IMG/VR virus record: IMGVR_UViG_3300020045_002497 | Span: 1 to 26,852 of that record | Strand: one strand, 5' to 3' | Length of the DNA stretch: 26,852 nt | DNA from: a virus | Lineage: Duplodnaviria; Heunggongvirae; Uroviricota; Caudoviricetes | In this document: piece after piece, positions 1,030 to 23,585 of the stretch | Layout of the letters: each line of letters begins with the position of its first letter | Position numbering within the stretch: the stretch's first letter is position 1 | The notes under the pieces: model-generated | The model's database searches: none | What the model was told of the DNA's origin: nothing | Seen by the model: only the letters and a program-made list of their open reading frames with translations | Translations under genes and position numbers: made by a program

Positions 1030-1377
1030 ATGGAATTAAATGATATAATAGGTGGAAAATATTATGCTGCACATTATATAGGTGAAAATCACCCTACAAT
1101 TATTAAAGCTTTACATGATAAATCTTTTAGACGTTCTACTGGTTTATATACAAGAAATAAAGAATTACAATATCGTTTTATTAAAAGTAATTCATTTGAA
1201 TGTGAAAATCATATAAGATTAGCTACACTAGAGGAAGGTCATTGGTTAAGTTGTTGTATAAATAATGATAAATATATATCTTATAAAGAAGCAATGTTAA
1301 CATTTGTAGACAAATCAATTAATTATCAACAAGATCCTGAATATAATAACATATTAATTAAATTATTAACAACATGA
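1030..1377 (+). CDS. Small paralog family A, with ILIKLL C-terminal tag
   Basis: RLATLEEGHWLSCC...YISYKEAMLTF; ends QQDPEYNNILIKLLTT. Confidence 0.85.
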   Translation: MELNDIIGGKYYAAHYIGENHPTIIKALHDKSFRRSTGLYTRNKELQYRFIKSNSFECENHIRLATLEEGHWLSCCINNDKYISYKEAMLTFVDKSINYQQDPEYNNILIKLLTT

Positions 1378-1724
1378 TAAGAAATGAAGATTTAATTGAA
1401 AATACTTATTATTATTCAGAAAAGTATTCAGGTACACTAAATAATAATTTTATTTTAAAATATGAAAAAGATGTAACAAGTTGTTCATTTATTCCAGATT
1501 TTATGAATAAGAATTCACATGCTGATTTTCATAATGATGGAACTTTTAATCATAGAATTACAAGATTAGCAACAGATGAAGAAATACATTGGTTTAAAAT
1601 ATGTTTTGAAGCTAAATCCTATATTAAATATGAAGAAGCTATGAAAACATTTAATCAAATTAAACCTACAATCCAAGATGATCCTAATTTAGGAGAAATA
1701 TTAATAAAATTATTAAATAATTAA
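1374..1724 (+). CDS. Small paralog family A, with ILIKLL tag
   Basis: RLATDEEIHWFKIC...YIKYEEAMKTF; ends QDDPNLGEILIKLLNN. Confidence 0.85.
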   Translation: MIRNEDLIENTYYYSEKYSGTLNNNFILKYEKDVTSCSFIPDFMNKNSHADFHNDGTFNHRITRLATDEEIHWFKICFEAKSYIKYEEAMKTFNQIKPTIQDDPNLGEILIKLLNN

Positions 1725-1725
1725 A

Positions 1726-2091
1726 ATGAAATTAAAAGATTGTAAACATGGAAAAGTATATTATTGGACAACAGGATATAATCATTCACACGGTTATTTA
1801 AATTTATTTCAAAATATACCAGGAGAATCTAATAATATTGAATGTTATATTACTAATGATATAAATCAAAAAAATAATAATGTTGATAGATTATTTTATA
1901 AAAATTCATCAAATAGCTCACCATATGATATTCGTGAAGCTACTCCAGAAGAAGAACATTGGTTGTTAACTTGTAAAGAAGCTAATACGTTTGTAGAATA
2001 TAAAACTGCAATGTTAAGTTTTAGACAACCTAATGTAATAACTAAAGATAGTTCTGACATTAATGAAATACTAATAAAATTATTATCATGA
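1726..2091 (+). CDS. Small paralog family A, with ILIKLL tag
   Basis: REATPEEEHWLLTC...FVEYKTAMLSF; ends KDSSDINEILIKLLS. Confidence 0.85.
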   Translation: MKLKDCKHGKVYYWTTGYNHSHGYLNLFQNIPGESNNIECYITNDINQKNNNVDRLFYKNSSNSSPYDIREATPEEEHWLLTCKEANTFVEYKTAMLSFRQPNVITKDSSDINEILIKLLS

Positions 2092-2414
2092 AATTACCAA
2101 AATTAATTAATGGGGAAATATATTATTGCAATGTATTTAGTAATCCTTATTTGTTTAAAATGCAAAAAAATAAGTCAGATATTAAACATTTACAATGTAA
2201 TAAAGAATATTTTTCAAATTGGGGATGGGATTTTTGGACTGATAGTACACTTACAGAAATTCAAATAGCTTCAGTAGAACAAAAACATTGGTTAAATGAA
2301 TGTATTAAAATCAATGAATACATTTCATATGATGATGCAATGTTATCATTTACTTTAAATATCAAAGATGATCCTGAATTAGGAAATATTCTAATTAAAC
2401 TATTAACTCAATAA
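2088..2414 (+). CDS. Small paralog family A, with ILIKLL tag
   Basis: QIASVEQKHWLNEC...YISYDDAMLSF; ends KDDPELGNILIKLLTQ. Confidence 0.85.
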   Translation: MKLPKLINGEIYYCNVFSNPYLFKMQKNKSDIKHLQCNKEYFSNWGWDFWTDSTLTEIQIASVEQKHWLNECIKINEYISYDDAMLSFTLNIKDDPELGNILIKLLTQ

Positions 2415-2417
2415 ATT

Positions 2418-2651
2418 ATGAAAGGTCATAGACTAAATAAAAGACAACCATTGTCTGAAGCAATTAAACAACATGCTAAATTACATGCTAAATATAAAGA
2501 ATATTCTTTAAAAACTATTCCAGAATTAGAAGAAATGTTACCATTATTAGGTGGTGGATATAAAGAAGTCTGTTTGTCTGTAATGAAAGAAAAGTTTGTA
2601 AATAACTTAAAAGATCAACAAACTCAAGAATTACCTGAAGGAGAAGCTTAA
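2418..2651 (+). CDS. Hypothetical protein, 77 aa
   Basis: ORF fills the gap between packed genes; no tag, no motif. Confidence 0.65.
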   Translation: MKGHRLNKRQPLSEAIKQHAKLHAKYKEYSLKTIPELEEMLPLLGGGYKEVCLSVMKEKFVNNLKDQQTQELPEGEA

Positions 2652-2652
2652 T

Positions 2653-2943
2653 ATGGAAAAGTTTGTATTACCAGAAAAATGGTTTATCAAAAGAACATTT
2701 GATAATGCTGATATTGTAAATGCTTGGATATGTAAAGAAAGAAATAATTCAAATGCTGCATTTTTAACTGATACCGCTACTGTTTTAAGTAATACTAAAT
2801 ATCATAGTTTTCCTGATTCAAATTATACTAATGGTTATACAGAATTAACATTTGAACAATTTTTAGAATATGTTATAAATAAAAAACCAATAATTCAAGA
2901 TAGTACTGAATTAAATAAAATATTAATTAAATTATTAAGTTAA
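2653..2943 (+). CDS. Small paralog family B, with ILIKLL tag
   Basis: FVLPEKWFIK...NAW...YTELTFEQFLEYV; ends QDSTELNKILIKLLS. Confidence 0.85.
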   Translation: MEKFVLPEKWFIKRTFDNADIVNAWICKERNNSNAAFLTDTATVLSNTKYHSFPDSNYTNGYTELTFEQFLEYVINKKPIIQDSTELNKILIKLLS

Positions 2944-3227
2944 TGGAATCTTTTAAATTACCTGAACAATGGGCTATTAAACAAAATCGTAAAGAAATAA
3001 ATGATTGGTTAAATATTCATAAACAAACCAATTCAAATTATAATTCTGTAGATGGTATACATTTGGTACATTATCCTGAATATAATAAATGTCATTTATA
3101 TAGTAAAATTAAACCTGGTTATACTGAAATAACTTTTGAAGAATTTGAAATTTATGTTTTAAAAACTAAAATATATATCCAAGATACAGAATTAAATCAA
3201 ATACTTATTAAACTTTTAACTGAATGA
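2943..3227 (+). CDS. Small paralog family B, with ILIKLL tag
   Basis: FKLPEQWAIK...INDW...YTEITFEEFEIYV; ends QDTELNQILIKLLTE. Confidence 0.85.
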   Translation: MESFKLPEQWAIKQNRKEINDWLNIHKQTNSNYNSVDGIHLVHYPEYNKCHLYSKIKPGYTEITFEEFEIYVLKTKIYIQDTELNQILIKLLTE

Positions 3228-3436
3228 TAACAAAAGATAGAGTGTTAGAAATTATTAATTCTACTAATCCAGGAGAATTAGAACAAATACATGTTATAAC
3301 CAGATATATTTTTGACAAAACTCAATCAGATATATCTGGTATTAATATAAATCCACCACAACATCAAGGTATGATTATATTAATGCATAATATGTATCAA
3401 ACTGCAAAGCAACATTATAGAACTAATGGACAATGA
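3224..3436 (+). CDS. Hypothetical protein, 70 aa
   Basis: ATGA-coupled to the previous gene; overlaps the polymerase start. Confidence 0.65.
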   Translation: MITKDRVLEIINSTNPGELEQIHVITRYIFDKTQSDISGININPPQHQGMIILMHNMYQTAKQHYRTNGQ

Positions 3437-5390
3437 TGCATTATTAAAAGCTTTACAAAATATACCATCTAGTAAGTGGCAAAAAGTTATTTGTGATGTT
3501 GAAGTATATCCTAATGTATTTTTATTAGGTATACAAGATGTTGATACTAAAGAAAAAATTGTTTATGAAATATCAGATAGATTAAATGAATATAATGAAG
3601 TAGTAAAATTTGTTACTACTTTTAATCAATATTTAATAACATTTAACGGAATACATTATGATATTCCTATTTTACTGTATATTGTAAACAATAAATTAGA
3701 AGATGTTAAAGAATATCTTCAAAAATTAAAAGAATGGTCAGATTATATAATTAATAATGACTTTTGGTGGAATGATAGTGAATTAAAAAAATATAAATAT
3801 CAAAACAGATGGATAGACATTGATTTATATTTATATTGGTCTAAAATGCTTAGACTTAGTAAAAAAATAAGCTTAAAAGGACTTGCTATTCAAATGAATT
3901 ATCCTGTAGTACAGGAATTACCATTTGATCCTTCAATGAGCTTAAATCATGCTCAAATTGATGAATTAAGGCATTATAATAGTGTACATGATTTAAGTAT
4001 TACTGATTTATTGTTTACTCAATTTACAGGTAAAGGAACTATTCCTTTAGGTAATTTAGGAACTGTACAATTAAGAGCTAAAGTTAAAGAGAAATATGGA
4101 ATTAACGCAATGTCTTTTGATGCTCCTAAAATAGCATCTGAAGTAATGCTTTACAAATATTGTCAAAAAACTAATCAAAATTTAAAAGTTTTTAAAAAAC
4201 AAAGATTTGAAAAAACACCTTTTCAATTTAAAGATTTATTTAGTGGTTATAAATTTGAATTTAAAACAAAAGTTTTAAAAGATATTTATAATAAATGGAT
4301 GAATAGTTATGATACATTTAATGAAACTTTTACTTGTTTTACTAAAGATCAAGAAGAAGGAATAAAATTATCTGTTGGTGTTGGAGGAATACACAATATT
4401 GTTAAAAATGAAATGTATGAAGCAAATGAAGAATATGAAATTTGTGATATAGATATAGAATCTTTATATCCTACATTTATATTAGGATTACATTGTTTTA
4501 GATTTAAAGAATTAGAAGAAACTTATGAAGAATTTAAACATTTAAGAGTTACTGAATCTAAACCTAATATTAAAAAGTTTAAAGGAACTGATAAAGAACA
4601 ATTCTGGAAAGAAGAAGATGCTTTTAATAAGGTTATTTTAAATGGATTATCTGGACATATTGATCAAGAACATTCTCCATTATATAATAATATTGGTGCA
4701 ATGAAAATGAGATGTATGGGACAATTAGTTCTATTAACAATTATTGAAAAAATACATGAAAAAAATATTAAAATAATACAAGTTAATACTGACGGTTTAA
4801 CTGTATTATTACCTAAATATAAAAAAGATTTATTTGTATCTATTGTTCAAGACACTGAAAAATTATATAGTGTTAAATTTGAATATGGTTATTATCAAAA
4901 AATGATACTTGCAAATGTTAACAATTATTTGGCCCAAGATTTATCTGGTTCAATTAAACAAAAAGGATTATTTGTTGATAAACCAGAACTTGGAAATAGT
5001 GTAGATTATTTAATTATACCTAAAGCATTAAAAGCTTATTATATTGAGAATATACCTGTTAAACAATTTGTTGAATCACATACTAATATCTTGGATTTCT
5101 GTTGTTCACAAAAAGTAGATAAATCCTATCATATAGAGTGGACCAGTCCTCAGTTTATTAAATCTAAACAACAAAGATTAAATAGATTTTATGCATCAAC
5201 TAAAGGTGGTTATATTTATAAATGTAGAAATGGTAAACAAAATCATTTATTGAAAGAATCTGGAGTAATGATTTACAATAATCATAATCCTAATGTATTT
5301 CCTACAGATATTAACTATAAATTCTATATTGCTCAAATAAATAAAATAATAAATGAAATAAATAATAAAAATCAATTAACACTATTTTAA
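3426..5390 (+). CDS. polB: Family B DNA polymerase with 3'-5' exonuclease domain
   Basis: ExoI CDVEVY, ExoII FNGIHYD, motif A DIDIESLYP, motif B KVILNGLSG, motif C QVNTDG; 654 aa. Confidence 0.93.
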   Translation: MDNDALLKALQNIPSSKWQKVICDVEVYPNVFLLGIQDVDTKEKIVYEISDRLNEYNEVVKFVTTFNQYLITFNGIHYDIPILLYIVNNKLEDVKEYLQKLKEWSDYIINNDFWWNDSELKKYKYQNRWIDIDLYLYWSKMLRLSKKISLKGLAIQMNYPVVQELPFDPSMSLNHAQIDELRHYNSVHDLSITDLLFTQFTGKGTIPLGNLGTVQLRAKVKEKYGINAMSFDAPKIASEVMLYKYCQKTNQNLKVFKKQRFEKTPFQFKDLFSGYKFEFKTKVLKDIYNKWMNSYDTFNETFTCFTKDQEEGIKLSVGVGGIHNIVKNEMYEANEEYEICDIDIESLYPTFILGLHCFRFKELEETYEEFKHLRVTESKPNIKKFKGTDKEQFWKEEDAFNKVILNGLSGHIDQEHSPLYNNIGAMKMRCMGQLVLLTIIEKIHEKNIKIIQVNTDGLTVLLPKYKKDLFVSIVQDTEKLYSVKFEYGYYQKMILANVNNYLAQDLSGSIKQKGLFVDKPELGNSVDYLIIPKALKAYYIENIPVKQFVESHTNILDFCCSQKVDKSYHIEWTSPQFIKSKQQRLNRFYASTKGGYIYKCRNGKQNHLLKESGVMIYNNHNPNVFPTDINYKFYIAQINKIINEINNKNQLTLF

Positions 5391-5391
5391 A

Positions 5392-5727
5392 ATGGAAAAA
5401 TATGGATTTATAATTGGAAATTGGTACAAATATATTGAAAATGATAAAAGTGCTTATTATATAAAAATAGAAAATGTTACAGACACAAGTAATTCAAATG
5501 GTATTTTTCGTAAAATATTTTATTCTGAAAAAATTCAAAATAATAAACATTTAATTTATGCTGGATACTGGGCAAATACAGAAATGGAAACTATCGCGTT
5601 AGAAAATCCAGTTGATATTTCTGAAATAATAGAATTTTTACCTAAAGATCATCCTGATTTATTAAAAATAACTAAACAATCCTATGATTATTTAATACCA
5701 ATATTAACTAAATTAAATACAACTTAA
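5392..5727 (+). CDS. Hypothetical protein with SYDYLIPIL-type C-terminal tag
   Basis: Ends KQSYDYLIPILTKLNTT. Confidence 0.8.
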   Translation: MEKYGFIIGNWYKYIENDKSAYYIKIENVTDTSNSNGIFRKIFYSEKIQNNKHLIYAGYWANTEMETIALENPVDISEIIEFLPKDHPDLLKITKQSYDYLIPILTKLNTT

Positions 5728-5728
5728 T

Positions 5729-6004
5729 ATGTACAAAGTAGTAAATACTAAAACTCAAGAAGAATGGGATATTGTTACTAAAACTTTAGATTACAAATGG
5801 ACAAGAGTTAATAATTTTAAATCTTACGGTACTAATACTTGTATTAATCTTACTTCTAGAGGATATGGAAATTTAAAATTTTATAAAAATGAAAATTCAT
5901 TAATTTATACTTTTGAAGAATGGTGTACATTAAATACAAAATCTAATGCTACAGATGATCTATCATATCTTACTGAATTTTTAATTAAAAATGAAATAAC
6001 ATGA
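5729..6004 (+). CDS. Small protein related to family B, with DDLSYL-type tag
   Basis: TKTQEEWD...TCI.L...GY...YTFEEW; ends TDDLSYLTEFLIKNEIT. Confidence 0.8.
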   Translation: MYKVVNTKTQEEWDIVTKTLDYKWTRVNNFKSYGTNTCINLTSRGYGNLKFYKNENSLIYTFEEWCTLNTKSNATDDLSYLTEFLIKNEIT

Positions 6005-7302
6005 TGTTAGAATGTGTACATGTAACTACTCAGGAAGAAGCTGATGAAGTATTAGAATTTATAGGTACTTGGAGACATGAAAATATGATTAAAAATACTG
6101 GAGAATGTATTATTTATTTAGATGATTCTGGATATGATAGACTTGATAGATATAAAGAACCAAAAGTATATGAAAAATATAACTTAATTACATTTGAAGA
6201 ATTTTTAGAAAAATATAAACATATAAAAACAAATAAACAATCAATGGAAAAACAAATGCTTGATGTCTTAAATAAGACATATGACAATTTACATTTAAGA
6301 AGAACAACAGTACCTCTGTTTATGTCAAATCCTGGAATAGGTAAAACTAGTATTATCCAGAAATTTGCTAAAGATAAAGGTGTTAAATTAGTGAAAATTA
6401 CTTTAAGTCAAAGAATGCCTAACGAGGTAGTAGGTATGGTTATGCCTGATGTAATTAGTAAAGCCTTATTAGTATTTAATAGTCATGAACTTGAACAGTT
6501 AAATGATGGAGATGTACTATTCTTTGATGAAGTATTTAATGGTACTTTAAAACAAACATTAGATGCTTTATTAAATCTATTAGAAGATAGAACATTACCT
6601 ACAGGTAAGAAATTAGCAGATGTAATGATTGTTGCAGCTAGTAATCCTCAAGGACTGATTAACTTAACTCCTCAGATTAAACAACGTTTTGAAAGAGAAG
6701 ATTTGAAATTTAATGCTGAAGAATTCCAAGTTTATTTGAAAAATAAATATGGTATGCCAGAATCTATTTCATCTCATCTTTGTACATTAATTAATAAAGA
6801 GAAATTTGAACCGAATGATTGGAACTTTGTAACACCTAGAAGTGTTGAGAAAGCTATCAATAAAATTGGTTGTGAATTAAAATCAAACTATGATGATGTT
6901 TTACTTCCATTTTTAACTAAAACTATTGAATCTCCTATGGATATTTCAAAATTAAATGTTAAAAAAGGTGATCAAGTAGAATATTTAAATATTTTGAAAT
7001 TATTAATTGCTAATTCAAATGTTAAATTAAGAGATACTGAAGAAGTTAAGTATCCTGAATTAAAAGTGAAAAGACTTAAAGCTGAAGAAATAGCTAAAGA
7101 ATTAGCAGAAAAAGAAGCTGCTAGAGAAAAAGCTGTTGCAGAATTTAAAGCAAAAGAAGCCGTTGATGCTGCAGCACAATTAGCTGCTGAACAAACAAAA
7201 ACTACATCTACAAAAAATAAATCTAAAAAACCAACACAAGCAAAAGATGATTCAACAAATCACAAGCAAGAAAGTGGAGTTACCAGTAATCTTCTTAATT
7301 GA
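6001..7302 (+). CDS. MoxR-like AAA+ ATPase with an N-terminal small-protein-like domain (probable internal start ATG 6244) and an A/E/K-rich C-terminal extension
   Basis: Walker A SNPGIGKT, Walker B LFFDE, sensor-1 AASNP, RF arginine finger (KQRFE), TPRS sensor-2; VWA gene immediately downstream. Confidence 0.85.
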   Translation: MMLECVHVTTQEEADEVLEFIGTWRHENMIKNTGECIIYLDDSGYDRLDRYKEPKVYEKYNLITFEEFLEKYKHIKTNKQSMEKQMLDVLNKTYDNLHLRRTTVPLFMSNPGIGKTSIIQKFAKDKGVKLVKITLSQRMPNEVVGMVMPDVISKALLVFNSHELEQLNDGDVLFFDEVFNGTLKQTLDALLNLLEDRTLPTGKKLADVMIVAASNPQGLINLTPQIKQRFEREDLKFNAEEFQVYLKNKYGMPESISSHLCTLINKEKFEPNDWNFVTPRSVEKAINKIGCELKSNYDDVLLPFLTKTIESPMDISKLNVKKGDQVEYLNILKLLIANSNVKLRDTEEVKYPELKVKRLKAEEIAKELAEKEAAREKAVAEFKAKEAVDAAAQLAAEQTKTTSTKNKSKKPTQAKDDSTNHKQESGVTSNLLN

Positions 7303-8182
7303 GGATGAAGCTGACTTCCAACAATTACCCAAAGGATTACCTTATGTTATAGGTAAACAATCTGAACTTCCGTTCATTACTCTTTTCTTGGAATTTCAAG
7401 TTTTATACAGATCTTGTATGAAAACTTTAATTCCTATTAAATGGTTAGATTGTTTAACTAAAATTGGATATGGTAATTCTCTCCGTAAGTATGAACTAAA
7501 ATCAGGTGGTGTCTATGGTGCTGGTGATAATGGTCAATATCTTTTAAAAAAAGAAGATTTTATTACAGATCAATATTTAGTTGATTTTGATAAATTATCT
7601 GAATTAAAGATTTTACCAGTATGGTTAGAAGACTTAAAAGCTTCTATTGAAACTAACATTATTGATGAAGTAATGTTTGATCCAACAGGCTTTAATAAAC
7701 AATTAGGAATGAACATTGGTGCAGCAGGACTTAAACACAATTTGAAGAATCTATTAATTTTAGATATTTCTTCTTCAATGCCAAAATCAGTAGTATTAAC
7801 TATTACTAATTTAGCTAAATTGATGTCTAAAAAGTTCTATGCAGATGTAATCTTAACAGGTAGAAGAAGCTATCTAGTAGATTATGAAGAAGTCCCTAAT
7901 ACAGACATCGTAGGTGCAGTAGCATCTTATGGTGGAGGTAATGAAGGTGACATGTACAAAGAAATTGTAAAACAACCTAAAGAATATGGTACAGTAATAT
8001 CATTTGGTGATAATGATTGTCCAGGTATTGAAAAAGGAGATAAAGATATGAATTTTAAAGTTCATACATTATATTCTTTACATACTGAAGGTAATCGCAC
8101 TAGTAATATTACTGGTTATGCTAGAGGATTTGATCCTGTAGAAACCTTTATCGTTAAGGACTGGATCTCAACAATTCAATAA
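7247..8182 (+). CDS. VWA-domain protein (MoxR partner)
   Basis: MIDAS-type ILDISSSM (DxSxS), later GGGN and VISFGD; overlaps the ATPase gene by 56 nt. Confidence 0.8.
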   Translation: MIQQITSKKVELPVIFLIEDEADFQQLPKGLPYVIGKQSELPFITLFLEFQVLYRSCMKTLIPIKWLDCLTKIGYGNSLRKYELKSGGVYGAGDNGQYLLKKEDFITDQYLVDFDKLSELKILPVWLEDLKASIETNIIDEVMFDPTGFNKQLGMNIGAAGLKHNLKNLLILDISSSMPKSVVLTITNLAKLMSKKFYADVILTGRRSYLVDYEEVPNTDIVGAVASYGGGNEGDMYKEIVKQPKEYGTVISFGDNDCPGIEKGDKDMNFKVHTLYSLHTEGNRTSNITGYARGFDPVETFIVKDWISTIQ

Positions 8183-8209
8183 ATTAAAGAGTAAAAAAAA
8201 GTAAACCCC

Positions 8210-8235
8210 GTGTAGATACCTATCAGTATTTACAC
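8210..8235 (+). promoter_or_regulatory. Intergenic hairpin upstream of a long A-rich leader
   Basis: GTGTAGATAC (8210-8219) / GTATTTACAC (8226-8235), 10-bp stem with one G-U, 6-nt loop; no U-tract on the + strand. Confidence 0.5.
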
Positions 8236-8275
8236 ACTAAATAAAATAAATAACAATTAAAAAAAAACAAAAAAC

Positions 8276-8767
8276 ATGGAATTTTTAACAGTAAAAGAAT
8301 TAGCATTAAATCCTGCAGGTTACTTAATCAGCGCAACATCTAAAAAACCAGTAACTCACCCAGCATTTGTTGCTCAACAAAAAAATGCAGAGTACACTGT
8401 AAAATTAGCTGACGCTATTAAAGGTAAAACTTTCAAATGTGGTAAAACTGATGATTTGGATAAAATCAAAGCTGAAGTATTAGCAGCAATTAACGCTAAA
8501 AACGTTAAGCAATTTGTTGCTACTCCTGAAAAACCAAAAAGTGCAGTACAAGATGAATTAGTTCAACATGCTTTAAACTTTGCTAACTACGAAGTTAAAA
8601 AAGGAGAAGTTGCAAAAATTAATGAAGTTATGGCTGAATTTGAAGCTATTACTGCAGTTGAAGAAGTTGGTGATTATTTCTCTGAAGGTTTAGTTAAATT
8701 AACTAAAATCTATACTACAGAAGAAATTTTAGCAGCTGTTCAAGCTACTGCTGAAACATTGAAATAA
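8276..8767 (+). CDS. Ala/Lys/Glu-rich helical hypothetical protein, probably highly expressed
   Basis: 163 aa; visibly uses AAC/TAC/TTC/ATC/GCT codons more than neighbours; long A-rich leader. Confidence 0.85.
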   Translation: MEFLTVKELALNPAGYLISATSKKPVTHPAFVAQQKNAEYTVKLADAIKGKTFKCGKTDDLDKIKAEVLAAINAKNVKQFVATPEKPKSAVQDELVQHALNFANYEVKKGEVAKINEVMAEFEAITAVEEVGDYFSEGLVKLTKIYTTEEILAAVQATAETLK

Positions 8768-8773
8768 TAAATT

Positions 8774-8843
8774 AAATAAATAATAGGTGTCAAATATTGG
8801 CAGTTGATTAAATGTTGTGACAACAACAGCCTATTATTTATTT
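8774..8843 (+). other. Structured intergenic element, copy A
   Basis: Perfect 14-bp inverted repeat AAATAAATAATAGG / CCTATTATTTATTT enclosing 42 nt; similar to 17496-17562. Confidence 0.65.
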
Positions 8844-8857
8844 TAAATTTAAAAAAC

Positions 8858-9601
8858 ATGCGTGAACATTTTGAGAATGCTATTGAATTATTAAAAAAAC
8901 AACAAATTAATGGATGTATTACAGGTTCTTGTATGCTTGAATTCAATGAAAGTTGGAATCAAGACATAGATTTATTTGTATATGATAAAGCTAGCTTTAC
9001 TAAAATACTTTGGTTTATGTATTATAATCCAATGTTTAATATTCTAGATCCATTAGAAAATCATAAATTCAAAGATTTTGTAGATAATGATAAATCATCA
9101 TTAGAGCAACTTGGTTTGATAACAATAAAATTTAAATATAATCTATTGATAGATGTCAATGTTATATTTAAGAAATTTCATAAAACATGTTTTGATGTAA
9201 TAAGTAATTTTGATTTAGATCTAATTGCTACAGCTTATGACATTAAAACAGGAAAAACAATCTCTTTAAGAGAAACAACAGGATTAGAAGGTACTTGGAA
9301 CAAATGGAATCCAACTTTCTATCAACATGAATTCTGGTCAACAAAGCGTCTATTAAGACAATTTGAACGTGTAATTAAATACACAGAAAGAGGTTATGAT
9401 CTATCTACAGTTACTGATAAGTATATATTAATAGTAGAAGAAATCATTCAATCAGAGAATTTTTATAAAACAGAGAAAGGAACAAAGTACTTTGAAGATA
9501 ATATTGAAACCTTTGAAGTAGTATTAAAAATATTGCAAGAGTGGAAGAAGACTAAATCTATCTCACCTGCTGAATTACTCACACTTAAAACGTTGATTTA
9601 A
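8858..9601 (+). CDS. Nucleotidyltransferase, Pol-beta superfamily (CCA/poly(A) polymerase head-like); start revised from 8804 to ATG 8858
   Basis: GCITGS...QDIDLF (hGS..DhD), third Asp in IDVN, ISNFDLD at the position of the RRDFT motif. Confidence 0.7.
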   Translation: MREHFENAIELLKKQQINGCITGSCMLEFNESWNQDIDLFVYDKASFTKILWFMYYNPMFNILDPLENHKFKDFVDNDKSSLEQLGLITIKFKYNLLIDVNVIFKKFHKTCFDVISNFDLDLIATAYDIKTGKTISLRETTGLEGTWNKWNPTFYQHEFWSTKRLLRQFERVIKYTERGYDLSTVTDKYILIVEEIIQSENFYKTEKGTKYFEDNIETFEVVLKILQEWKKTKSISPAELLTLKTLI

Positions 9602-9902
9602 TGGACGATTTTATATTACCTGATACTTGGTGTATAAAAATAACTGAAGATAATCGTAAAATTATAAATGATTGGAAAATAAAACAACCAGTTTTAAATG
9701 ATGATTTATTTAAACATTTACAATATATATATGTTAATCATGGACGGTGGTTGGATCAGATGATCATTACAAAAAACAAGAATTATCAATTGAAGAATTT
9801 ATACAATATGTATTAAAACAAGAGATTGAAGTTAAACAAAAATCAATTAAGGAAGATACTACTTATCTCATTAATTTTTTAAAACAAAATAATATTACAT
9901 AA
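9601..9902 (+). pseudogene. Family B small gene with a -1 frameshift near 9738-9760
   Basis: Frame 1 gives FILPDTWCIKITEDNRKIINDW; the shifted frame continues SDDHYKKQELSIEEFIQYVL...KEDTTYLINFLKQNNIT* (TAA 9900-9902), restoring the family motif and tag. Confidence 0.75.
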
Positions 9903-9903
9903 T

Positions 9904-10086
9904 ATGTCATCAGAGATGGATAAACTCCTTGAGGAGTTAAGAGCAATGAAAAAAACTGGCCCTACATTTAATGCTAAAACTGTATGGGATGGTATTGCAC
10001 AAAGAAAAGATTTCTCAGAAATGGGATTTAAATCAATTGAGGAATTTGAACAATGGATTTCAGATAATCCTTACGCTAATTTATAA
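9904..10086 (+). CDS. Hypothetical protein, 60 aa
   Basis: Packed ORF with plausible composition. Confidence 0.65.
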   Translation: MSSEMDKLLEELRAMKKTGPTFNAKTVWDGIAQRKDFSEMGFKSIEEFEQWISDNPYANL

Positions 10087-10089
10087 GAT

Positions 10090-10341
10090 ATGAAAAAGTT
10101 TATAAAAGATAACCACCTATCATTTGGTGAAGGGATGAGAAATTCTACAGTTACCGTACTTATCGGGTATTCTCAACATTTAGGATTATCTCAAAATGAT
10201 TTAGAAGTAGAATTATCTGATGAAATAGAAGCAGATAGTTTTATTCAAGAAGAAATAAATAGATTATGGATTTATTGTAAAAGAAATGATTACAAGAAAT
10301 TCTGGAAAACAGCTCAGGCTAAAAAACAATATACATTTTAA
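10090..10341 (+). CDS. Stand-alone PriCT (primase C-terminal)-like helical domain
   Basis: FGEGMRNSTVTVLIGYSQHLG matches the EGxRNxxLxxLxGxL..G pattern of PriCT-1; lies near a Prim-Pol domain gene. Confidence 0.55.
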   Translation: MKKFIKDNHLSFGEGMRNSTVTVLIGYSQHLGLSQNDLEVELSDEIEADSFIQEEINRLWIYCKRNDYKKFWKTAQAKKQYTF

Positions 10342-10351
10342 ATTAAAAATT

Positions 10352-10654
10352 ATGATAAGACAACCAATTAATTCAGTAATAGGAATAAAATTTAGAAGTT
10401 GCACTGATTACTATACAGGTAAAAAAGAATCTAAGACATATGGTTATGTTGAATTAAATAATGGTATCTTAGAAATTTCTAAATTTAAAAATGCAGGTAA
10501 ATTAAATATTGAACTTCGTGTAATGAGGGGTAATACATTAAAACCTGAATTGAAGAAAATAGTAAATTCTTATTCAGATATTAGACATTATGTTAAGGAA
10601 TTAAACTATGAAGACATGTCTGAATTACAAAATCTATTATCTGAAATACAATGA
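10352..10654 (+). CDS. Hypothetical protein, 100 aa (start revised from 10286), with tag-like end
   Basis: ATG 10352 after A-rich leader; ends YEDMSELQNLLSEIQ, aligning with KEDLSYLIPLLKDLQ. Confidence 0.7.
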   Translation: MIRQPINSVIGIKFRSCTDYYTGKKESKTYGYVELNNGILEISKFKNAGKLNIELRVMRGNTLKPELKKIVNSYSDIRHYVKELNYEDMSELQNLLSEIQ

Positions 10655-11127
10655 AATCATTCCTATTAAATAAAGCAACAAATACACCTATTGTTCGCTG
10701 GAGTCTTGTACCTAACAATTGTTTTTTTGAAGGAGCTATTCCTGAAGGTTATGCTTTAGCAGTAGCTCCATCAGAAAATTATATTGTGTTAGATGTAGAT
10801 AAAAAAAATGGTAAAAATGGATTTGCGAGTATTCCAATTCACATATCTGGATTATTAGAACATACTTTTTATTATTATACTAAATCAGGTGGTGCTCATT
10901 ATTGGATTAAGTACACTGGAGATAAAGTATTATTAAATACATCTACTAAATACGGTTTAGATTTACGCATAGGAGCTAAACCAGGTAATAGTGGTGGATA
11001 TGTCAAATATCCTCATAATGTAGACATTAGACAATGTATTCAGTTAATTAAAGAATCTTCTTCAGAGTTAAATGTGTGGTTAGAATCATTATTTTGTGGA
11101 GTAAATCATGAAAAATATGGAAAATAA
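10651..11127 (+). CDS. Bifunctional DNA primase/polymerase N-terminal (Prim-Pol, AEP) domain
   Basis: IVLDVD (motif I), TKSGGAHYW (motif II), LDLR..GGYVKYP (motif III). Confidence 0.8.
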   Translation: MKSFLLNKATNTPIVRWSLVPNNCFFEGAIPEGYALAVAPSENYIVLDVDKKNGKNGFASIPIHISGLLEHTFYYYTKSGGAHYWIKYTGDKVLLNTSTKYGLDLRIGAKPGNSGGYVKYPHNVDIRQCIQLIKESSSELNVWLESLFCGVNHEKYGK

Positions 11128-11461
11128 CAATTTTAAAAAGGGAGATTATGTAGTTTTATTAAGTGGATGTGATGGTACAAATACATGGCCTGATGTAATA
11201 CCTATAAATTATTGTTATAAATTAAGAGAAGACTCTAATGATTTAACATTTAGAGTTGCTAGAGATACACGAGGAAGTAAATCCAATGGTTGGTATACTA
11301 CTCCACCATATGATAGTAAACTTTTATTAAGAGCTGCTACATCATCTGAAATTAAATTATATGAAGAATTTGGTAAACCATTTAGTGTTTCTATTTATAT
11401 TCCTGAATCTTATGAATATTTAATTCCATTACTTAAAGAATTAGATAATGAAACTACATGA
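11108..11461 (+). CDS. Small protein, family A-like (RAAT..EI), with SYEYLIPLL tag
   Basis: LRAATSSEIKLY; ends PESYEYLIPLLKELDNETT. Confidence 0.8.
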   Translation: MKNMENNNFKKGDYVVLLSGCDGTNTWPDVIPINYCYKLREDSNDLTFRVARDTRGSKSNGWYTTPPYDSKLLLRAATSSEIKLYEEFGKPFSVSIYIPESYEYLIPLLKELDNETT

Positions 11462-11864
11462 TATTAAACAAGATATAGAAAAATTAATTCCTGGAATTGA
11501 TTATTCTACATTTGTTGGACACATGTCTATTCAACGTAAATCTTATAAATTTAAATTAGAAGAAATGAAAGAAGAAATAGAAAGTGATGTAAAAATTGGT
11601 GATTTTATACAATATGTACAGGGTGGTAGACATAATTCAGATGTTGTTCCTAGATACTCATCTACATTTCAACAACATGAAATAGGTAATTATACTTATA
11701 TTTTAGATATTGTTGAAGATACTAAAGGAAAATTAGGATATAAAGTTCAATGTGAACGTGGAATTACATATATAAGAAGAGAAGCTTTTAAACTTGTTCT
11801 TAATGCTCCACAACCTAAAGAAGACCTATCTTACCTTATTCCACTATTAAAAGATTTACAATGA
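11448..11864 (+). CDS. Hypothetical protein with EDLSYLIPLL tag
   Basis: Ends PKEDLSYLIPLLKDLQ. Confidence 0.8.
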   Translation: MKLHDIKQDIEKLIPGIDYSTFVGHMSIQRKSYKFKLEEMKEEIESDVKIGDFIQYVQGGRHNSDVVPRYSSTFQQHEIGNYTYILDIVEDTKGKLGYKVQCERGITYIRREAFKLVLNAPQPKEDLSYLIPLLKDLQ

Positions 11865-12184
11865 AAAAGAGATTTAGTTTACCTACAAATTGGTGTGTGA
11901 TAATAACTGAAGAAAATCGAGAGATGCTTGAAAGTTATAGAGTAACTATGAATTGTAATAATTCTGACGGTAATACATGTTTAGATGATGATGCGTTAAA
12001 TAAATATTTAATAGCTAACGATTTATATAGTGATAATATGTATTGGGGATTTGAACAACCTGATGAATATGTTTTAATTTCATTTGAGGATTTTCAAAAA
12101 TATATTTTAAAAAAGAACCCTAATGTTCCAAAAGAAGATTTAATATTCTTAAAAAATTTATTAATTCAAAATGGTATAAACTAA
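11861..12184 (+). CDS. Small paralog family B, with EDL-type tag
   Basis: FSLPTNWCVIITEENREML...YVLISFEDFQKYIL; ends PKEDLIFLKNLLIQNGIN. Confidence 0.85.
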   Translation: MKKRFSLPTNWCVIITEENREMLESYRVTMNCNNSDGNTCLDDDALNKYLIANDLYSDNMYWGFEQPDEYVLISFEDFQKYILKKNPNVPKEDLIFLKNLLIQNGIN

Positions 12185-12477
12185 TGGAAGAAGAATTTAT
12201 ATTACCTAATTTATGGTGGTTAAAAGCAGATGAAAATAATTATAATTTAATTGATAAATGGAGAAATGATTCTTTTAAAGGTAGAACACCATTTGATAGA
12301 AATTATCATTATGTATCTTATAGTGGTTGAGGTTCTACTCCAGAAAAAGATGGTTTTATAATAACTACAAATCAATTTATAAAATATGTACTCAATATTG
12401 AAGAACCAATTACCAATAATACACCAGAAGATTTATCATATCTGATAGATTTATTTAAACAACAACAAATAATTTAA
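12184..12477 (+). pseudogene. Family B small gene interrupted by an in-frame TGA (12328-12330); not in ORF track
   Basis: MEEEFILPNLWWLKADENNYNLIDKW...SYSG*GST...NQFIKYVL...PEDLSYLIDLFKQQQII* with TAA 12475-12477; TAATG-coupled to the upstream gene. Confidence 0.8.
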
Positions 12478-13781: not shown

Positions 13782-14555
13782 ATGAAAGAACAAATAAATA
13801 CTTTAGGTTTTATATACATGATAACAAGTCCAACAGGTAGATTATATGTTGGATCAACTATCAATATTAAAAATAGATTAAAAAGTTATAAAAGTAGTCC
13901 TTCTAAAGGACAGGTAAAACTTTATAATTCTTTTAAAAAGTATGGATTTGAAAAACATATATTTGAAGTAATTATGACTTGTTCTATTAATGAAATGTAT
14001 AAATATGAAACATTAATAGGATTTGGATTCAACGTACTTGAACCTGAAAATTTAAATTTAAAATTACCTAAATTAAATAATGAATATTCTTCTATGAGTG
14101 AAGAAACAAAAATTAAAATAGGTTTAAAAAATAAAGGTAAAATACATACAGATGAATTTAAAAATAGATTACGAAATGCAAATTTAGGTAGGATTATGTC
14201 AGACGCAACAAAAGAAAAAATAAGTAAAGCTAATAAAAATCCATCAAAAGAAATAAGATTGAGAAAAAGTAAATCTCAATTAGGTAGAATTTTTTCACAA
14301 GAAGTTCGAGATAAAATAAGTAATTCTCATAAAGGTAAAAAATTAAGTATTGCACATAAAGAAAATATAGGTAAAACTAAATATATACCAATTAATCAAT
14401 ATGATTTGAATGATAATTTTATTAAAGAATGGGAAAGTATTAAATCTGCAAGTATTGATTTAAAAATAGCTAATATAAGTATTTCTTTATGTTGTAAAGG
14501 TAGAAGAAAAACAGCAGGAAAATTTAAATGGAAATACAACAATGGAACAACTTAA
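13782..14555 (+). mobile_element. Free-standing GIY-YIG homing endonuclease (HEG1) with NUMOD3-like repeats and a NUMOD1-like C-terminus
   Basis: GFIYMIT...LYVGST...R; repeats such as SEETKIKIG and SDATKEKIS; QYDLNDNFIKEWESIKSA...FKWKY. Confidence 0.9.
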
Positions 14556-20168: not shown

Positions 20169-20718
20169 AAAGTTTAAGGTTACTTCAAAACCTAAGAAAA
20201 AAGCAGTTCCTCACGGAGTTCCTACTATTCATGATGGAGTTCAACTAAGATCTGGATTAGAGAAAATATGTTATCAAGCCTTACAAAAAGCTGGTATAAC
20301 AGACTTTAACTATGAAGATGATGTGTTTGAGCTTCAACCTAAATTCACTGCATCAGGAGTCAGTTATCAGCTTTACAAGCGTATGATGACTTATGATGAA
20401 GCTAAAGAATTAGGAATTAATGCTAGATTTAAAGATAAAAAGAAAGCAAAGTATGTTTATCAATTTGGAGAAGTTACCAATAATTTAAGAGCAATTACTA
20501 TTAAACCTGATTTTAGTAGATTAAATAAGGATACTAAAACTGGATTTATAATTGAAACTAAAGGTCTTTATTCTGGTGAATATCTATTAAAATTGCGTAT
20601 CTTTAAGCACTGGTTAACAGTTAATGGTTGGAATATTGACTATTTTGCACCAAACAACCAAACTACAGTGAATAAGTCTATTGCAATTATAAAAGCTAAA
20701 TATTATGAAAATAAATAA
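20143..20718 (+). CDS. T7 endonuclease I-like PD-(D/E)XK nuclease / Holliday junction resolvase
   Basis: RSGLEK, FNYE, KPDF, IIETKG. Confidence 0.85.
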   Translation: MVRRQNLAKKFKVTSKPKKKAVPHGVPTIHDGVQLRSGLEKICYQALQKAGITDFNYEDDVFELQPKFTASGVSYQLYKRMMTYDEAKELGINARFKDKKKAKYVYQFGEVTNNLRAITIKPDFSRLNKDTKTGFIIETKGLYSGEYLLKLRIFKHWLTVNGWNIDYFAPNNQTTVNKSIAIIKAKYYENK

Positions 20719-21382
20719 AATTGGTTACATTTATATGATTACTAATCCTACAGGAAGATTGTATGTTGGAAGTACTATTAATATTCAAAATAGATGGAAA
20801 CAATATTATTTATTAAAATGTAAATCTCAATCAAAATTATATAAATCATTAATTAAATATACTCCTGAAAAACACAAATTTGAAATAATTTGGCAAGGTT
20901 CAGTTGATACTATGTATAAATATGAAACTATGATTGGTTGGGGATTTAATGTATTAGAAAAAGAACACTTAAATTGTAGATTACCTAAATTAGGTGACAT
21001 TTATTCAGTAATGAGTTGTGATACAAAATTAAAAATTGGTATTAAAAATAAAGGTACTGTTATGACTCAAAATCAAAAAGATAAATTAAGTATTATTAAT
21101 TTAGGTAAAAAGTTATCAACAGAAACTTGTATTAAAATGGGAAAATCTCGTTTAGGAAATAAATACGCTTTAGGTAAAACTAGATCTAAAGAATTTAAAC
21201 TTACAATGAATTCTCATAATTTTAAACTTATACTACAATATGATTTAAATATGAATTTTATTAAAGAATGGAAAAGTATTAAATCTGCTTCAGAACAATT
21301 AAAAATTAATTCAGGACATATTGGTCAAGTATGTAAAAATAATAGAGGATCCGCGGGTGGGTTTAAGTGGAAGTATAAATAA
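20705..21382 (+). mobile_element. Free-standing GIY-YIG homing endonuclease (HEG2)
   Basis: GYIYMIT...LYVGST...R; NUMOD-like repeats; QYDLNMNFIKEW...GFKWKY. Confidence 0.9.
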
Positions 21383-22208: not shown

Positions 22209-22951
22209 TAGGACTAATTGATGCAGATCATATACCATACATAGTATGTTATAATAAAATAGGTGAACCTGAAAAAACCCTTGAAGATGCTATTAAACAA
22301 GCAAATAATTATCTTCAAGGGTTACTTAATGGTGCAAATGTTGAAGAATTTATTTTATTCTTCACAATAGGAAAAAACTTTAGATATGATATATATCCAG
22401 AGTATAAAGCTAATAGAAAGTTTAATGAAAAACCACCCTTCTTTAATGAAGTAAGAGATTACTTAGTTAAAGAATATAATGGTATTCATGGTTATAATTT
22501 AGAAGCTGATGACGTACTTAATATTTATAAAAATAAGTACATTGCTGAACAAGTAAATTATATTGTAATATCTACTGATAAAGATATTAACAATTTATTT
22601 GGACTAAACTACGATATTAAAAATAATGTTGCAAGACTAGTGGATCAAGAATTTGCTGATCAATATTTCTGGGGATCTGTAATAACCGGAGATACAGCAG
22701 ATAATATTAAAGGAGTACCTGGTAAAGGACCTGCTTTTATTAAAAAATTATGGGAAAGTACTAAAGAAATAAATTTATTTAAAAGTAAAGTAATTTGTGA
22801 ATACATAAACTATTTTGGTGAAGAAGTTGGAATTGAGGAATTTTACAAAAATTATAAATGCTTAAAAATCCTTGATAATTATGAAGGAATTGTGTATATT
22901 GCACCTATTAAAAGTGAAAAAGTCCAATTTAACATACTCGGGAATTTATAA
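22205..22951 (+). CDS. 5'-3' exonuclease / flap endonuclease (T7 gp6 / T4 RNase H type)
   Basis: LIDAD, YKANR, LEADD, STDKD, GDTADNIKGVPGKG. Confidence 0.92.
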   Translation: MIGLIDADHIPYIVCYNKIGEPEKTLEDAIKQANNYLQGLLNGANVEEFILFFTIGKNFRYDIYPEYKANRKFNEKPPFFNEVRDYLVKEYNGIHGYNLEADDVLNIYKNKYIAEQVNYIVISTDKDINNLFGLNYDIKNNVARLVDQEFADQYFWGSVITGDTADNIKGVPGKGPAFIKKLWESTKEINLFKSKVICEYINYFGEEVGIEEFYKNYKCLKILDNYEGIVYIAPIKSEKVQFNILGNL

Positions 22952-23585
22952 AATTACAAACATTATAAATAATAAAATTTATATTGGTTCTGCTATTAAT
23001 TTTTATAAAAGATTTTATTTACATTTAAATATGTTAAATAATAATAAACATCATTCCAAATATCTTCAAAAATCTTGGAATAAATACGGTAAAGAAAACT
23101 TTAAATTTGAAATATTAGTAAAATGTCCACCTGAATATTGTATAAAACTAGAACAATGGTTTTTAAATAATTTAAATACCGAATATAATATTTGTAAAAC
23201 AGCAGGTAGTTTATTAGGATTTAAAAAATCTGAAGAATCAAAATTAAAACAATCTATGGCAATTAAAGGTAGAAAACAAAGTTTAGAACATATCAGAAAT
23301 AAAAGTATTGCTTTAAAAGGTAGAAAATGTTCAGAATTAACTAAACAAATTACTGGAGCAAGATATAGAGGAATTAAAAGATCTAAAGAATTTATTGATA
23401 ATTGGACTTTAAAAAAATATAAAAAAGTTTATCAGTATGATTTAAATATGAATTTTATTAAAGAGTGGAATAGTATAAAAGAAGCAAATGAATTTTATAA
23501 AACTACAGTAATATCACAATGTTGTAAACATAAATTAAAAACGTGTAAAGGATTTAAATGGGAATATTGTAAAATGGGTGTCTAA
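22881..23585 (+). mobile_element. Free-standing GIY-YIG homing endonuclease (HEG3); start ATG 22881 or GTG 22914
   Basis: SGIYKI...IYIGSA...R, LEQ, YNI; NUMOD3 repeats; QYDLNMNFIKEW...GFKWEY. Confidence 0.9.

Follow-up and report, generated by a model that had tools for sequence, protein, structure and literature searches.

In phage T4, one short peptide, the capsid targeting sequence, routes unrelated internal proteins (IPI–III and Alt) to one destination, and in the adaptor SspB the body that binds substrate is joined by a flexible linker to a short C-terminal peptide, which docks it on ClpX. In the AAA+/VWA machines CbbQ–CbbO (Rubisco) and Rea1/Midasin (UBL domains of Ytm1 and Rsa4), a metal-ion-dependent adhesion site (MIDAS) of the VWA part grips an acidic residue of the client, and different clients can share a handle. 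Also close to the case described here are the T4 proteins gp43, gp33 and gp55, whose interchangeable hydrophobic-acidic C-terminal tails on divergent flexible linkers dock on the gp45 clamp (PMC2988020), and the VMAP-MoxR-vWA systems, in which a third component combines variable N-terminal heads with a constant C-terminal part and the gene order is third component, MoxR, vWA (PMC7159879). Tethering by SspB is among the matters described in bioRxiv 10.1101/2022.11.06.515074, and NorQ/NorD, a further case of the AAA+/VWA kind, is treated in PMC9976466. Here we describe a C-terminal tail carried by 14 small proteins of a crAss-like phage, encoded between positions 1030 and 12477 of a stretch of 26,852 nucleotides (IMG/VR record IMGVR_UViG_3300020045_002497, positions 1 to 26,852; hereafter the window). 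The record as a whole is complete, with 90,852 bp, direct terminal repeats and 27% G+C, and the window covers its first 26.8 kb. The crAss-like placement rests on gene layout and on a family-A DNA polymerase that is about 29% identical to the polymerases of crAss-like phages.

All 14 tails listed in an earlier note on this DNA were located on the plus strand, at the open reading frame (ORF) ends given there; we name the genes by their start positions. The tail is laid out as a variable linker rich in Pro, Lys and Glu, an acidic cap (Glu or Asp, then Asp or Asn) and an amphipathic helix of three to four turns. Its consensus is ..E-D-[LY]-x-[YI]-L-I-x-[LF]-L, often ending in ..LNI[KT], and its length is 12–18 residues, behind linkers that differ in both length and sequence from one tailed protein to the next. 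Six genes upstream (5′) of the polymerase gene (1030, 1374, 1726, 2088, 2653 and 2943) have class 1 tails, which end in ..[DE]-L-x-x-ILIKLL plus one or two residues. The eight class 2 genes (5392, 5729, 9601/9747, 10352, 11108, 11448, 11861 and 12184/12331) lie downstream (3′) of it and end in [ED][DY]xx[YF]L[IT]x[LF][LF] plus four to eight residues.

A count over 50 related loci, taken from IMG/VR and from other assemblies and 56–94% identical in the polymerase and 56–97% in the VWA protein, gave 135 distinct tails. Position −9 is Glu or Asp in 95 of these 135 tails and position −8 is Asp or Asn in 84, and both positions lay outside the regular expression by which the tails were selected. The core is followed by one to nine variable residues, by exactly six in 60 tails, often as ..NIK or ..NIT. 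The helix has a mean hydrophobic moment of 0.44, and the mean net charge of the 12-mer is −0.8. In the AlphaFold2 model of the 11861 product (g11861; predicted local distance difference test (pLDDT) 76.6), a beta-alpha body (residues 1–82) is followed by coil (83–94) and the tail helix (95–103), the latter with a pLDDT of about 75–84.

The core regular expression has 13 matches in the six-frame ORFs of the complete 90.8-kb genome; 12 lie within 22 amino acids of a stop codon, and 11 are listed genes. We then scored the window tails with an independent profile, made of 91 tails from distant relatives only (VWA identity 75% or less), against a null of 12,200 shuffled C-termini. Ten of the 14 score 11.0–17.4 bits, at or near the shuffle maximum of 11.1 bits or above it (99.9th percentile, 8.3 bits), so that the comparison with random C-termini proposed in the earlier note comes out in favour of the tails. 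The other four (1726, 2088, 1374 and 11861) score 5.1–7.3 bits, the 99th percentile of the shuffles being 4.6 bits, and at 5–7 bits they are intermingled with three non-tail ORFs. None of 779 minus-strand ORFs in the window and 15 loci has a tail score. The codons of the invariant Leu are TTA 7, CTT 3, CTA 2, CTC 1 and CTG 1, against 77% TTA for Leu genome-wide, and the six variable sites within ILIKLL are all synonymous. Because the Leu codons vary and ILIKLL changes only synonymously, the target of selection is the peptide rather than a promoter, a leader or a recombination joint; with five Leu codons in use, the protein-level conservation suggested in the earlier note is borne out. We regard the tail as a confirmed and solid observation.

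The earlier note had recognised at least two body families plus singletons. In a comparison of the bodies without their tails, four window genes belong to family A, five to family B and one (5729) to B′, and the four others include 5392, which is tied to family A only by a profile, and 11108 and 11448, which have N-domains of their own. Two of the family B genes have a class 1 tail and three have a class 2 tail. Once stripped of their tails, 80 tailed ORFs fall into 19 blastp clusters, or about 14 when false matches of the regular expression are dropped. Pfam and PHROGs searches with ten tailed proteins gave nothing significant.

A word-indexed search with g11861 had given one relative only, and we ran a family B profile against 1.84 billion representative sequences, which found 2302 proteins. 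Among the best 150 of these, 114 are long (201–960 amino acids), contain two to seven tandem B domains and have no tail-like match of at least 9 bits. The remaining 36 are short (200 amino acids or less); 23 of them score above the profile cut-off and nearly all are tailed by eye, with the end pattern ..EDLSYLIxxLxxLNI[KT]. Protein P0010 (comparative locus L052:2950-4617) joins one A and two B domains in one chain without tails. Domains A and B are widespread phage modules without a Pfam family. Fold searches with the family B model (PDB by Foldseek and VIA wide, AFDB clusters, ESM Atlas) were uninformative, with a best E above 2, a Z of 2.5 and a TM of 0.59 to an unnamed viral protein; the Atlas shape matches span residues 3–85 only. 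Long B-repeat proteins of 555–960 amino acids include P0002 and P0003 (L051:10001-15591) and P0010, and the contigs of these three are phage-like, with small unannotated genes and no MoxR/VWA pair within 10 kb.

Close relatives show tails and bodies coming apart. P0001, an orthologue of g11861 with 80% identity, bears a different tail variant, ENYDYLIPLLKNII. Between the window and locus L016, whose VWA proteins are 97% identical, the bodies of positional counterparts are 23–51% identical and their last 20 residues 40–95%. Since long A/B proteins lack the tail, tail variants are swapped and bodies diverge while tails stay, the tail is separable; these observations support a separate unit that is exchanged between several sequence-unrelated, fast-changing bodies.

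This arrangement resembles that of the T4 gp45-binding tails, in that a similar short C-terminal motif stands on unrelated bodies (about 14 blastp clusters) behind a variable, flexible linker. Natural tail swaps are seen as well (P0001 versus g11861; class by position) and may correspond to the interchangeability of the T4 motifs. The arrangement differs in scale and in form: T4 has three clients of known function and a known hub, whereas here there are 14–18 small accessory proteins per genome, with a longer helical motif and extra residues after it. Beta-clamp, gp45 and PCNA profiles detected no clamp gene in this phage. SspB likewise has a body, a linker and a short C-terminal peptide, but its ATPase is of another class, its motif is another one, and it is a single adaptor, not an arsenal. 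Unlike the T4 capsid targeting sequence, which is N-terminal and cleaved, the tails are C-terminal and belong to the replication-side module, not to the late genes. Likeness to the C-terminal peptide of FtsZ, to the tail of SSB or to the beta-clamp motif QL[SD]LF was considered and dropped, as most tails lack the Pro and the registers do not fit. We found no description of a shared tag in the literature on crAss-like phages. The earlier note knew of no named system that matches, and this stands for the particular tag but not for the principle, for which the T4 clamp tails and the ternary MoxR-vWA systems are precedents; we found no account of the tag itself, of its scale or of a link to a MoxR/VWA pair.

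Class 1 and class 2 tails do not match each other's profiles, and we do not claim at the level of sequence that the two classes are one motif. Two observations link them. Family B bears both classes at the same position, and intermediate forms, ALIKLLK and PLVKLLN, occur in relatives. In several relatives, too, class 1 lies upstream and class 2 downstream of the polymerase gene, so that class tracks genome position and not body family. The number of tails per locus ranges from 0–3 (loci of the L007 type and L048) to 18 (L017). In the tail-poor relatives, small genes far upstream of the polymerase gene (L001:4684-5556 and L007:6238-6875) end in ..INSLNKQD, ..KFKNKQD, ..EKTDKQD and ..LLNKQII; ends of the KQD type may be a second shared tail.

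What the tail does is a further matter. It may well be a common handle. The earlier note had proposed a portable tag that routes proteins to one partner: the separable, protein-selected and exchanged unit is supported, whereas the single partner and its identity are conjectural. That the tail docks on a common partner is a reading we favour tentatively, at somewhat less than even chances. The tail would then be a portable docking helix on a flexible linker, grafted onto fast-changing, small single-domain accessory proteins, and would tie each of these proteins to a common partner, a single machine thereby serving variable heads. The likeliest partner would be the phage's own pair of a MoxR-type ATPase and a VWA protein (6001-8182), an identification that we put forward as possible though rather doubtful.

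The ATPase matches the Pfam families AAA_5 (4e-10) and AAA (3e-9), and most of its homologues match PF20030 (bpMoxR). The VWA protein has no Pfam match by sequence. Its AlphaFold2 model (pLDDT 73.3) retrieves the vWF A3 domain, integrin I domains and Ro60/TROVE from the PDB with Foldseek (E 3e-4 to 5e-3, probability 0.95–1.0) and matches TROVE/VWA_CoxE/vWA_Ro60 clusters of the atlas at 0.94. In 67 homologues, Asp173 and Ser175 of its MIDAS motif are invariant and Ser177 is conserved in at least 90%. A PDB sequence search with the ATPase and the VWA protein gave no match.

Several kinds of evidence point to this pair. One is gene order. Of 37 small ORFs that lie between the genes for the polymerase and the ATPase, 36 are tailed, compared with 98 of 488 elsewhere (Fisher 2.6e-22), and the gene immediately upstream of the ATPase gene is tailed in 17 of 25 distinct loci, the rearranged locus L045 included. 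Another is the ATPase N-domain. Tailed protein 5729 matches ATPase residues 2–68 by blastp (2e-5), and an iterated profile reaches five ATPases at 1e-27 to 1e-33. The N-domain is present in 73 of 120 ATPase homologues and absent from 47, and in L004 and L007, where the ATPase has no N-domain, a tailed 148-amino-acid gene lies directly upstream of it. This suggests that one kind of head may be fused to the ATPase or tethered by a tail; the small tailed proteins would then be detachable versions of what many of these ATPases have as a covalent N-domain. A further one is a tail-like helix in the ATPase itself, GDQVEYLNILKLLIANSN (amino acids 323–340, nucleotides 6967–7020), which follows the lid domain and has the conserved form G[DE]xVEYLxLLKLIIKN across 120 homologues. 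Nine residues separate its end from the stop codon in short homologues; in the window ATPase it is followed by an Ala/Glu/Lys-rich extension of about 90 amino acids that overlaps the start of the VWA gene. The statement of the earlier note that no recognisable enzyme carries the tag needs this qualification. The first helix of the ATPase (MEKQMLDVLNK), at the same distance from the B′ domain, was also considered as tail-like, and is not significant with the tail profile.

The tailed gene, MoxR, vWA order recalls the VMAP-MoxR-vWA systems, in which a MoxR-class ATPase gene is likewise followed directly by a MIDAS-bearing vWA gene. VMAP-C, however, is a large alpha+beta domain, whereas the upstream proteins here have 90–190 amino acids and a tail of 12–18 residues. 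VMAP systems are cellular, each has a single VMAP, and their vWA proteins carry effector domains; here we find many small tailed genes and a bare 311-amino-acid VWA protein in a phage genome. As the defining VMAP-C domain is absent, the set is not a member of the VMAP systems, but by analogy the tail and the ATPase/VWA set may work like one. Either the VWA protein or the ATPase ring would hold the tail, the former possibly by a contact of its MIDAS with the tail's conserved acidic residue. The conserved Glu or Asp right before the tail helix is reminiscent of client capture by MIDAS proteins, but the co-fold described below returned no interface by which the MIDAS could be placed on the tail.

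We co-folded the VWA protein, ATPase residues 82–345, g11861 and Mg, and obtained a score of 0.40; the best of three controls, with the VWA chain replaced, reached 0.14. The runs agree in at least 30% of contacts, and the pLDDT of the partners is at least 66. In calibration, 58 of 80 solved complexes and 2 of 110 mismatched pairs passed the mark, and only 7 of the 80, together with both of these mismatches, passed it at 0.60 or under; with self-made alignments and a riding Mg, these counts apply only roughly here. The model gives weak support to an association of the tailed protein with the ATPase and the VWA protein.

A number of observations weigh against the pair as the common partner. Weak co-fold passes of the 0.40 kind are more often wrong than right unless the guess is already likely, and as the co-fold gave no interface, the tail is not identified as the contact. 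All comparative loci belong to one phage clade (VWA identity 56% or more), the locus search with the VWA alignment having reached this clade only, and the synteny counts are non-independent. Tailed genes also lie at a distance from the ATPase gene, both upstream of the polymerase gene (1030-3227) and downstream of the pair (10352-12477). Locus L048 (IMGVR_UViG_3300020049_006510) has an ATPase of 265 amino acids without N-domain and a VWA protein, but none of 26 small ORFs in 14 kb is tailed, and in six other loci the gene upstream of the ATPase gene is untailed. That one genome has two non-matching tail classes could point to separate sites or separate partners. The partner may also be a hub of the host (clamp, RNA polymerase, protease or division proteins).

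The tail may also have a role that involves no common partner of this kind. The most substantial of these alternatives, although unlikely in our judgement, is self-assembly, in which the tails bundle the proteins into homo- or hetero-oligomers as the non-covalent counterpart of the long chains of two to seven A/B domains. That the same domains occur either in tandem without a tail or singly with one fits multivalency reached in two ways, and the helix is amphipathic (moment 0.44); however, some 11–14 residues are few for a stable coiled coil, the core contains a Pro in several tails (YLIPLL), and a conserved acidic cap and ..NI[KT] end would rather suit a peptide that a pocket recognises. We think it improbable that the tail is a degron by which a host AAA+ protease (Lon, FtsH or ClpXP) would remove these early or middle accessory proteins at a set time, or a signal for unfolding by the phage ATPase. 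An exposed hydrophobic C-terminal element on a flexible linker, its restriction to small accessory proteins of the replication-side module and the AAA+ ATPase encoded beside the tailed genes would all suit such a signal, but known C-terminal degrons are read at the extreme end of the chain, whereas here one to nine variable residues follow the core, and we know of no role for MoxR ATPases as unfoldase partners of proteases. Targeting to the inner membrane by an amphipathic helix, as in MinD or FtsA, has still less in its favour. A short amphipathic C-terminal helix behind a flexible linker has the right form, and Lys-rich variants exist in some lineages (YLIKFLKKLNIK in L045, for example); yet the helix does not have a net positive polar face, and anionic bacterial membranes would disfavour a mean charge of −0.8 with acidic residues at −9 and −8.

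Two further explanations deny the tail any separate role as a peptide. It could be the last helix of one old superfamily, packed on its own body. A, B and B′ do have a similar strand-helix element (I[ST][YF]xE[FA]..) right before the linker, and the pLDDT of the modelled tail helix (about 75–84) would be in keeping with a packed helix. This is nevertheless hard to reconcile with the 114 long family B profile proteins that lack the tail, with Atlas shape matches that end at residue 85, with tails on bodies without detectable similarity, with tail variants swapped between near-identical bodies and with a tail class that tracks genome position over body family, and we consider it improbable as well. 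Least credible of all is an element that acts in DNA or RNA, the gene ends being cassette recombination joints or AT-rich leaders for the next gene and the peptide a by-product. The tight coupling of the genes (ATGA and TAATG overlaps), the replacement of bodies with retention of 3′ ends between close relatives and the pure A/T codons of most tail residues would agree with it. Codons at conserved residues are, however, more varied than genome usage, with only synonymous variation in ILIKLL; the conserved Glu, Asp, Ser and Pro residues require G or C; and the order of amino acids is held across relatives whose core genes are 56–97% identical.

Returning to docking on the MoxR/VWA pair, we can imagine, as a distinctly speculative extension, a modular phage machine. 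A MoxR ring and its VWA protein would pick up a dozen or more interchangeable heads, fused or docked by tails, each for a different host target such as a defence protein, which the ATPase would then remodel or dismantle; such a machine would be to a phage what the VMAP-MoxR-vWA conflict systems are to cells, with heads turning over in an arms race. From the turnover of the heads and a Gad2-like neighbour (see below), our guess is that the heads serve in counter-defence or host takeover.

The crAss-like phages are abundant, yet no role is known for most of the small genes that do not encode structural proteins. The tag marks 14–18 small genes per genome as one functional group, kept throughout a clade in which more than 130 different tail sequences occur, and gives a direct experimental handle on a common partner. 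Domains A and B, widespread phage domains of unknown function, are now separated from the tag, and domain B has more than 2300 database relatives. If the partner is indeed the MoxR/VWA pair, the tailed proteins would be the first client set for a phage MoxR system and an example of an adaptor logic, variable head and constant handle, in phage-host conflict.

Table 1. Tailed genes and the MoxR/VWA pair in the window. Tail coordinates are nucleotides of the window; scores are from the independent tail profile.
Feature	Position	Strand	Length (aa, amino acids)	Tail or motif	Score (bits)	Remarks
Tailed, body family A	1030..1377	+	115	class 1, DPEYNNILIKLLTT (1333-1374)	11.3	
Tailed, body family A	1374..1724	+	116	DPNLGEILIKLLNN (1680-1721)	5.8	family A by tail-less blastp, 1e-8 to 1e-11
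Tailed, body family A	1726..2091	+	121	SSDINEILIKLLS (2050-2088)	7.3	
Tailed, body family A	2088..2414	+	108	DPELGNILIKLLTQ (2370-2411)	6.3	
Tailed, body family B	2653..2943	+	96	class 1, STELNKILIKLLS (2902-2940)	13.0	body pattern F.LP..W.IK ... ITFEQF..YV
Tailed, body family B	2943..3227	+	94	class 1, DTELNQILIKLLTE (3183-3224)	11.5	
Tailed	5392..5727	+	111	class 2, TKQSYDYLIPILTKLNTT (5671-5724)	13.2	N-part distant kin of family A
Tailed, body B′	5729..6004	+	91	ATDDLSYLTEFLIKNEIT (5948-6001)	11.1	paralogue of the neighbouring ATPase's N-domain
MoxR-type AAA+ ATPase	6001..7302	+	433			B′ as N-domain (aa 1-80), then AAA+ core, tail-like helix and a charged extension at the C-terminus; candidate tail reader or co-worker
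VWA protein	7247..8182	+	311	DxSxS MIDAS motif D173/S175/S177		overlaps ATPase gene by 56 nucleotides (7247-7302); candidate reader of tails
Tailed, family B, frameshifted	9601..9902	+		IKEDTTYLINFLKQNNIT (9846-9899)	17.4	frame 1 to ~9746, frame 3 from 9747
Tailed, singleton body	10352..10654	+	~100	NYEDMSELQNLLSEIQ (10604-10651)	11.0	ATG at 10286 upstream also open
Tailed, own N-domain	11108..11461	+	117	IPESYEYLIPLLKELDNETT (11399-11458)	15.0	
Tailed, own body	11448..11864	+	138	PKEDLSYLIPLLKDLQ (11814-11861)	16.7	
Tailed (g11861), family B	11861..12184	+	107	PKEDLIFLKNLLIQNGIN (12128-12181)	5.1	
Tailed, family B	12184..12477	+		TPEDLSYLIDLFKQQQII (12421-12474)	14.6	in-frame TGA 12328-12330

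Some of the tailed genes have informative relatives. Homologues of 10352 of about 100 amino acids, with ends of the EDMSALQNLL type, occur in L017, L020 and L031, and the N-domain of 11108 is joined to a B domain in L013:12435-13010. Two of the window genes are broken. The reading frame of 9601-9902 changes near 9745-9750 (CGGTGGTTGG), and the relatives that we read have no counterpart at the same position. The close relative L016 has an intact counterpart of gene 12184-12477 (13904-14194, 96 amino acids) that shares 19 of the last 20 residues, and the TGA of the window gene is probably a fresh pseudogene mutation or a sequencing error. Recoding of TGA at 12328 as Trp was considered and ruled out: many genes stop at TGA (ATGA overlaps), long ORFs are intact under table 11, there are no tRNA genes, and the L016 counterpart has Asp at the matching site. 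The phage uses the standard genetic code. Its minus strand holds an ORF of 3759 amino acids, and a megablast search with the region gave no match to GenBank phages.

Downstream of the VWA gene, 8804-9601 (or from the ATG at 8858) encodes a conserved protein of 245–265 amino acids. Its homologues in L016 and L017 have a precomputed match to Pfam family PF26128 (Gad2, an anti-Gabija family); a Pfam scan of the window copy gave nothing at E 0.01 or less. The protein ends in ..SPAELLTLKTLI, and a second paralogue in L007 ends likewise (..ELLTLKTLA). Farther downstream, 13782-14555, 20705-21382 and 22872-23585 are three paralogues with GIY-YIG-like N-termini (..IYMITxPTGRLYVGST..), the L017 counterpart of which has PF01541; they are probably homing endonucleases inserted between replication genes.

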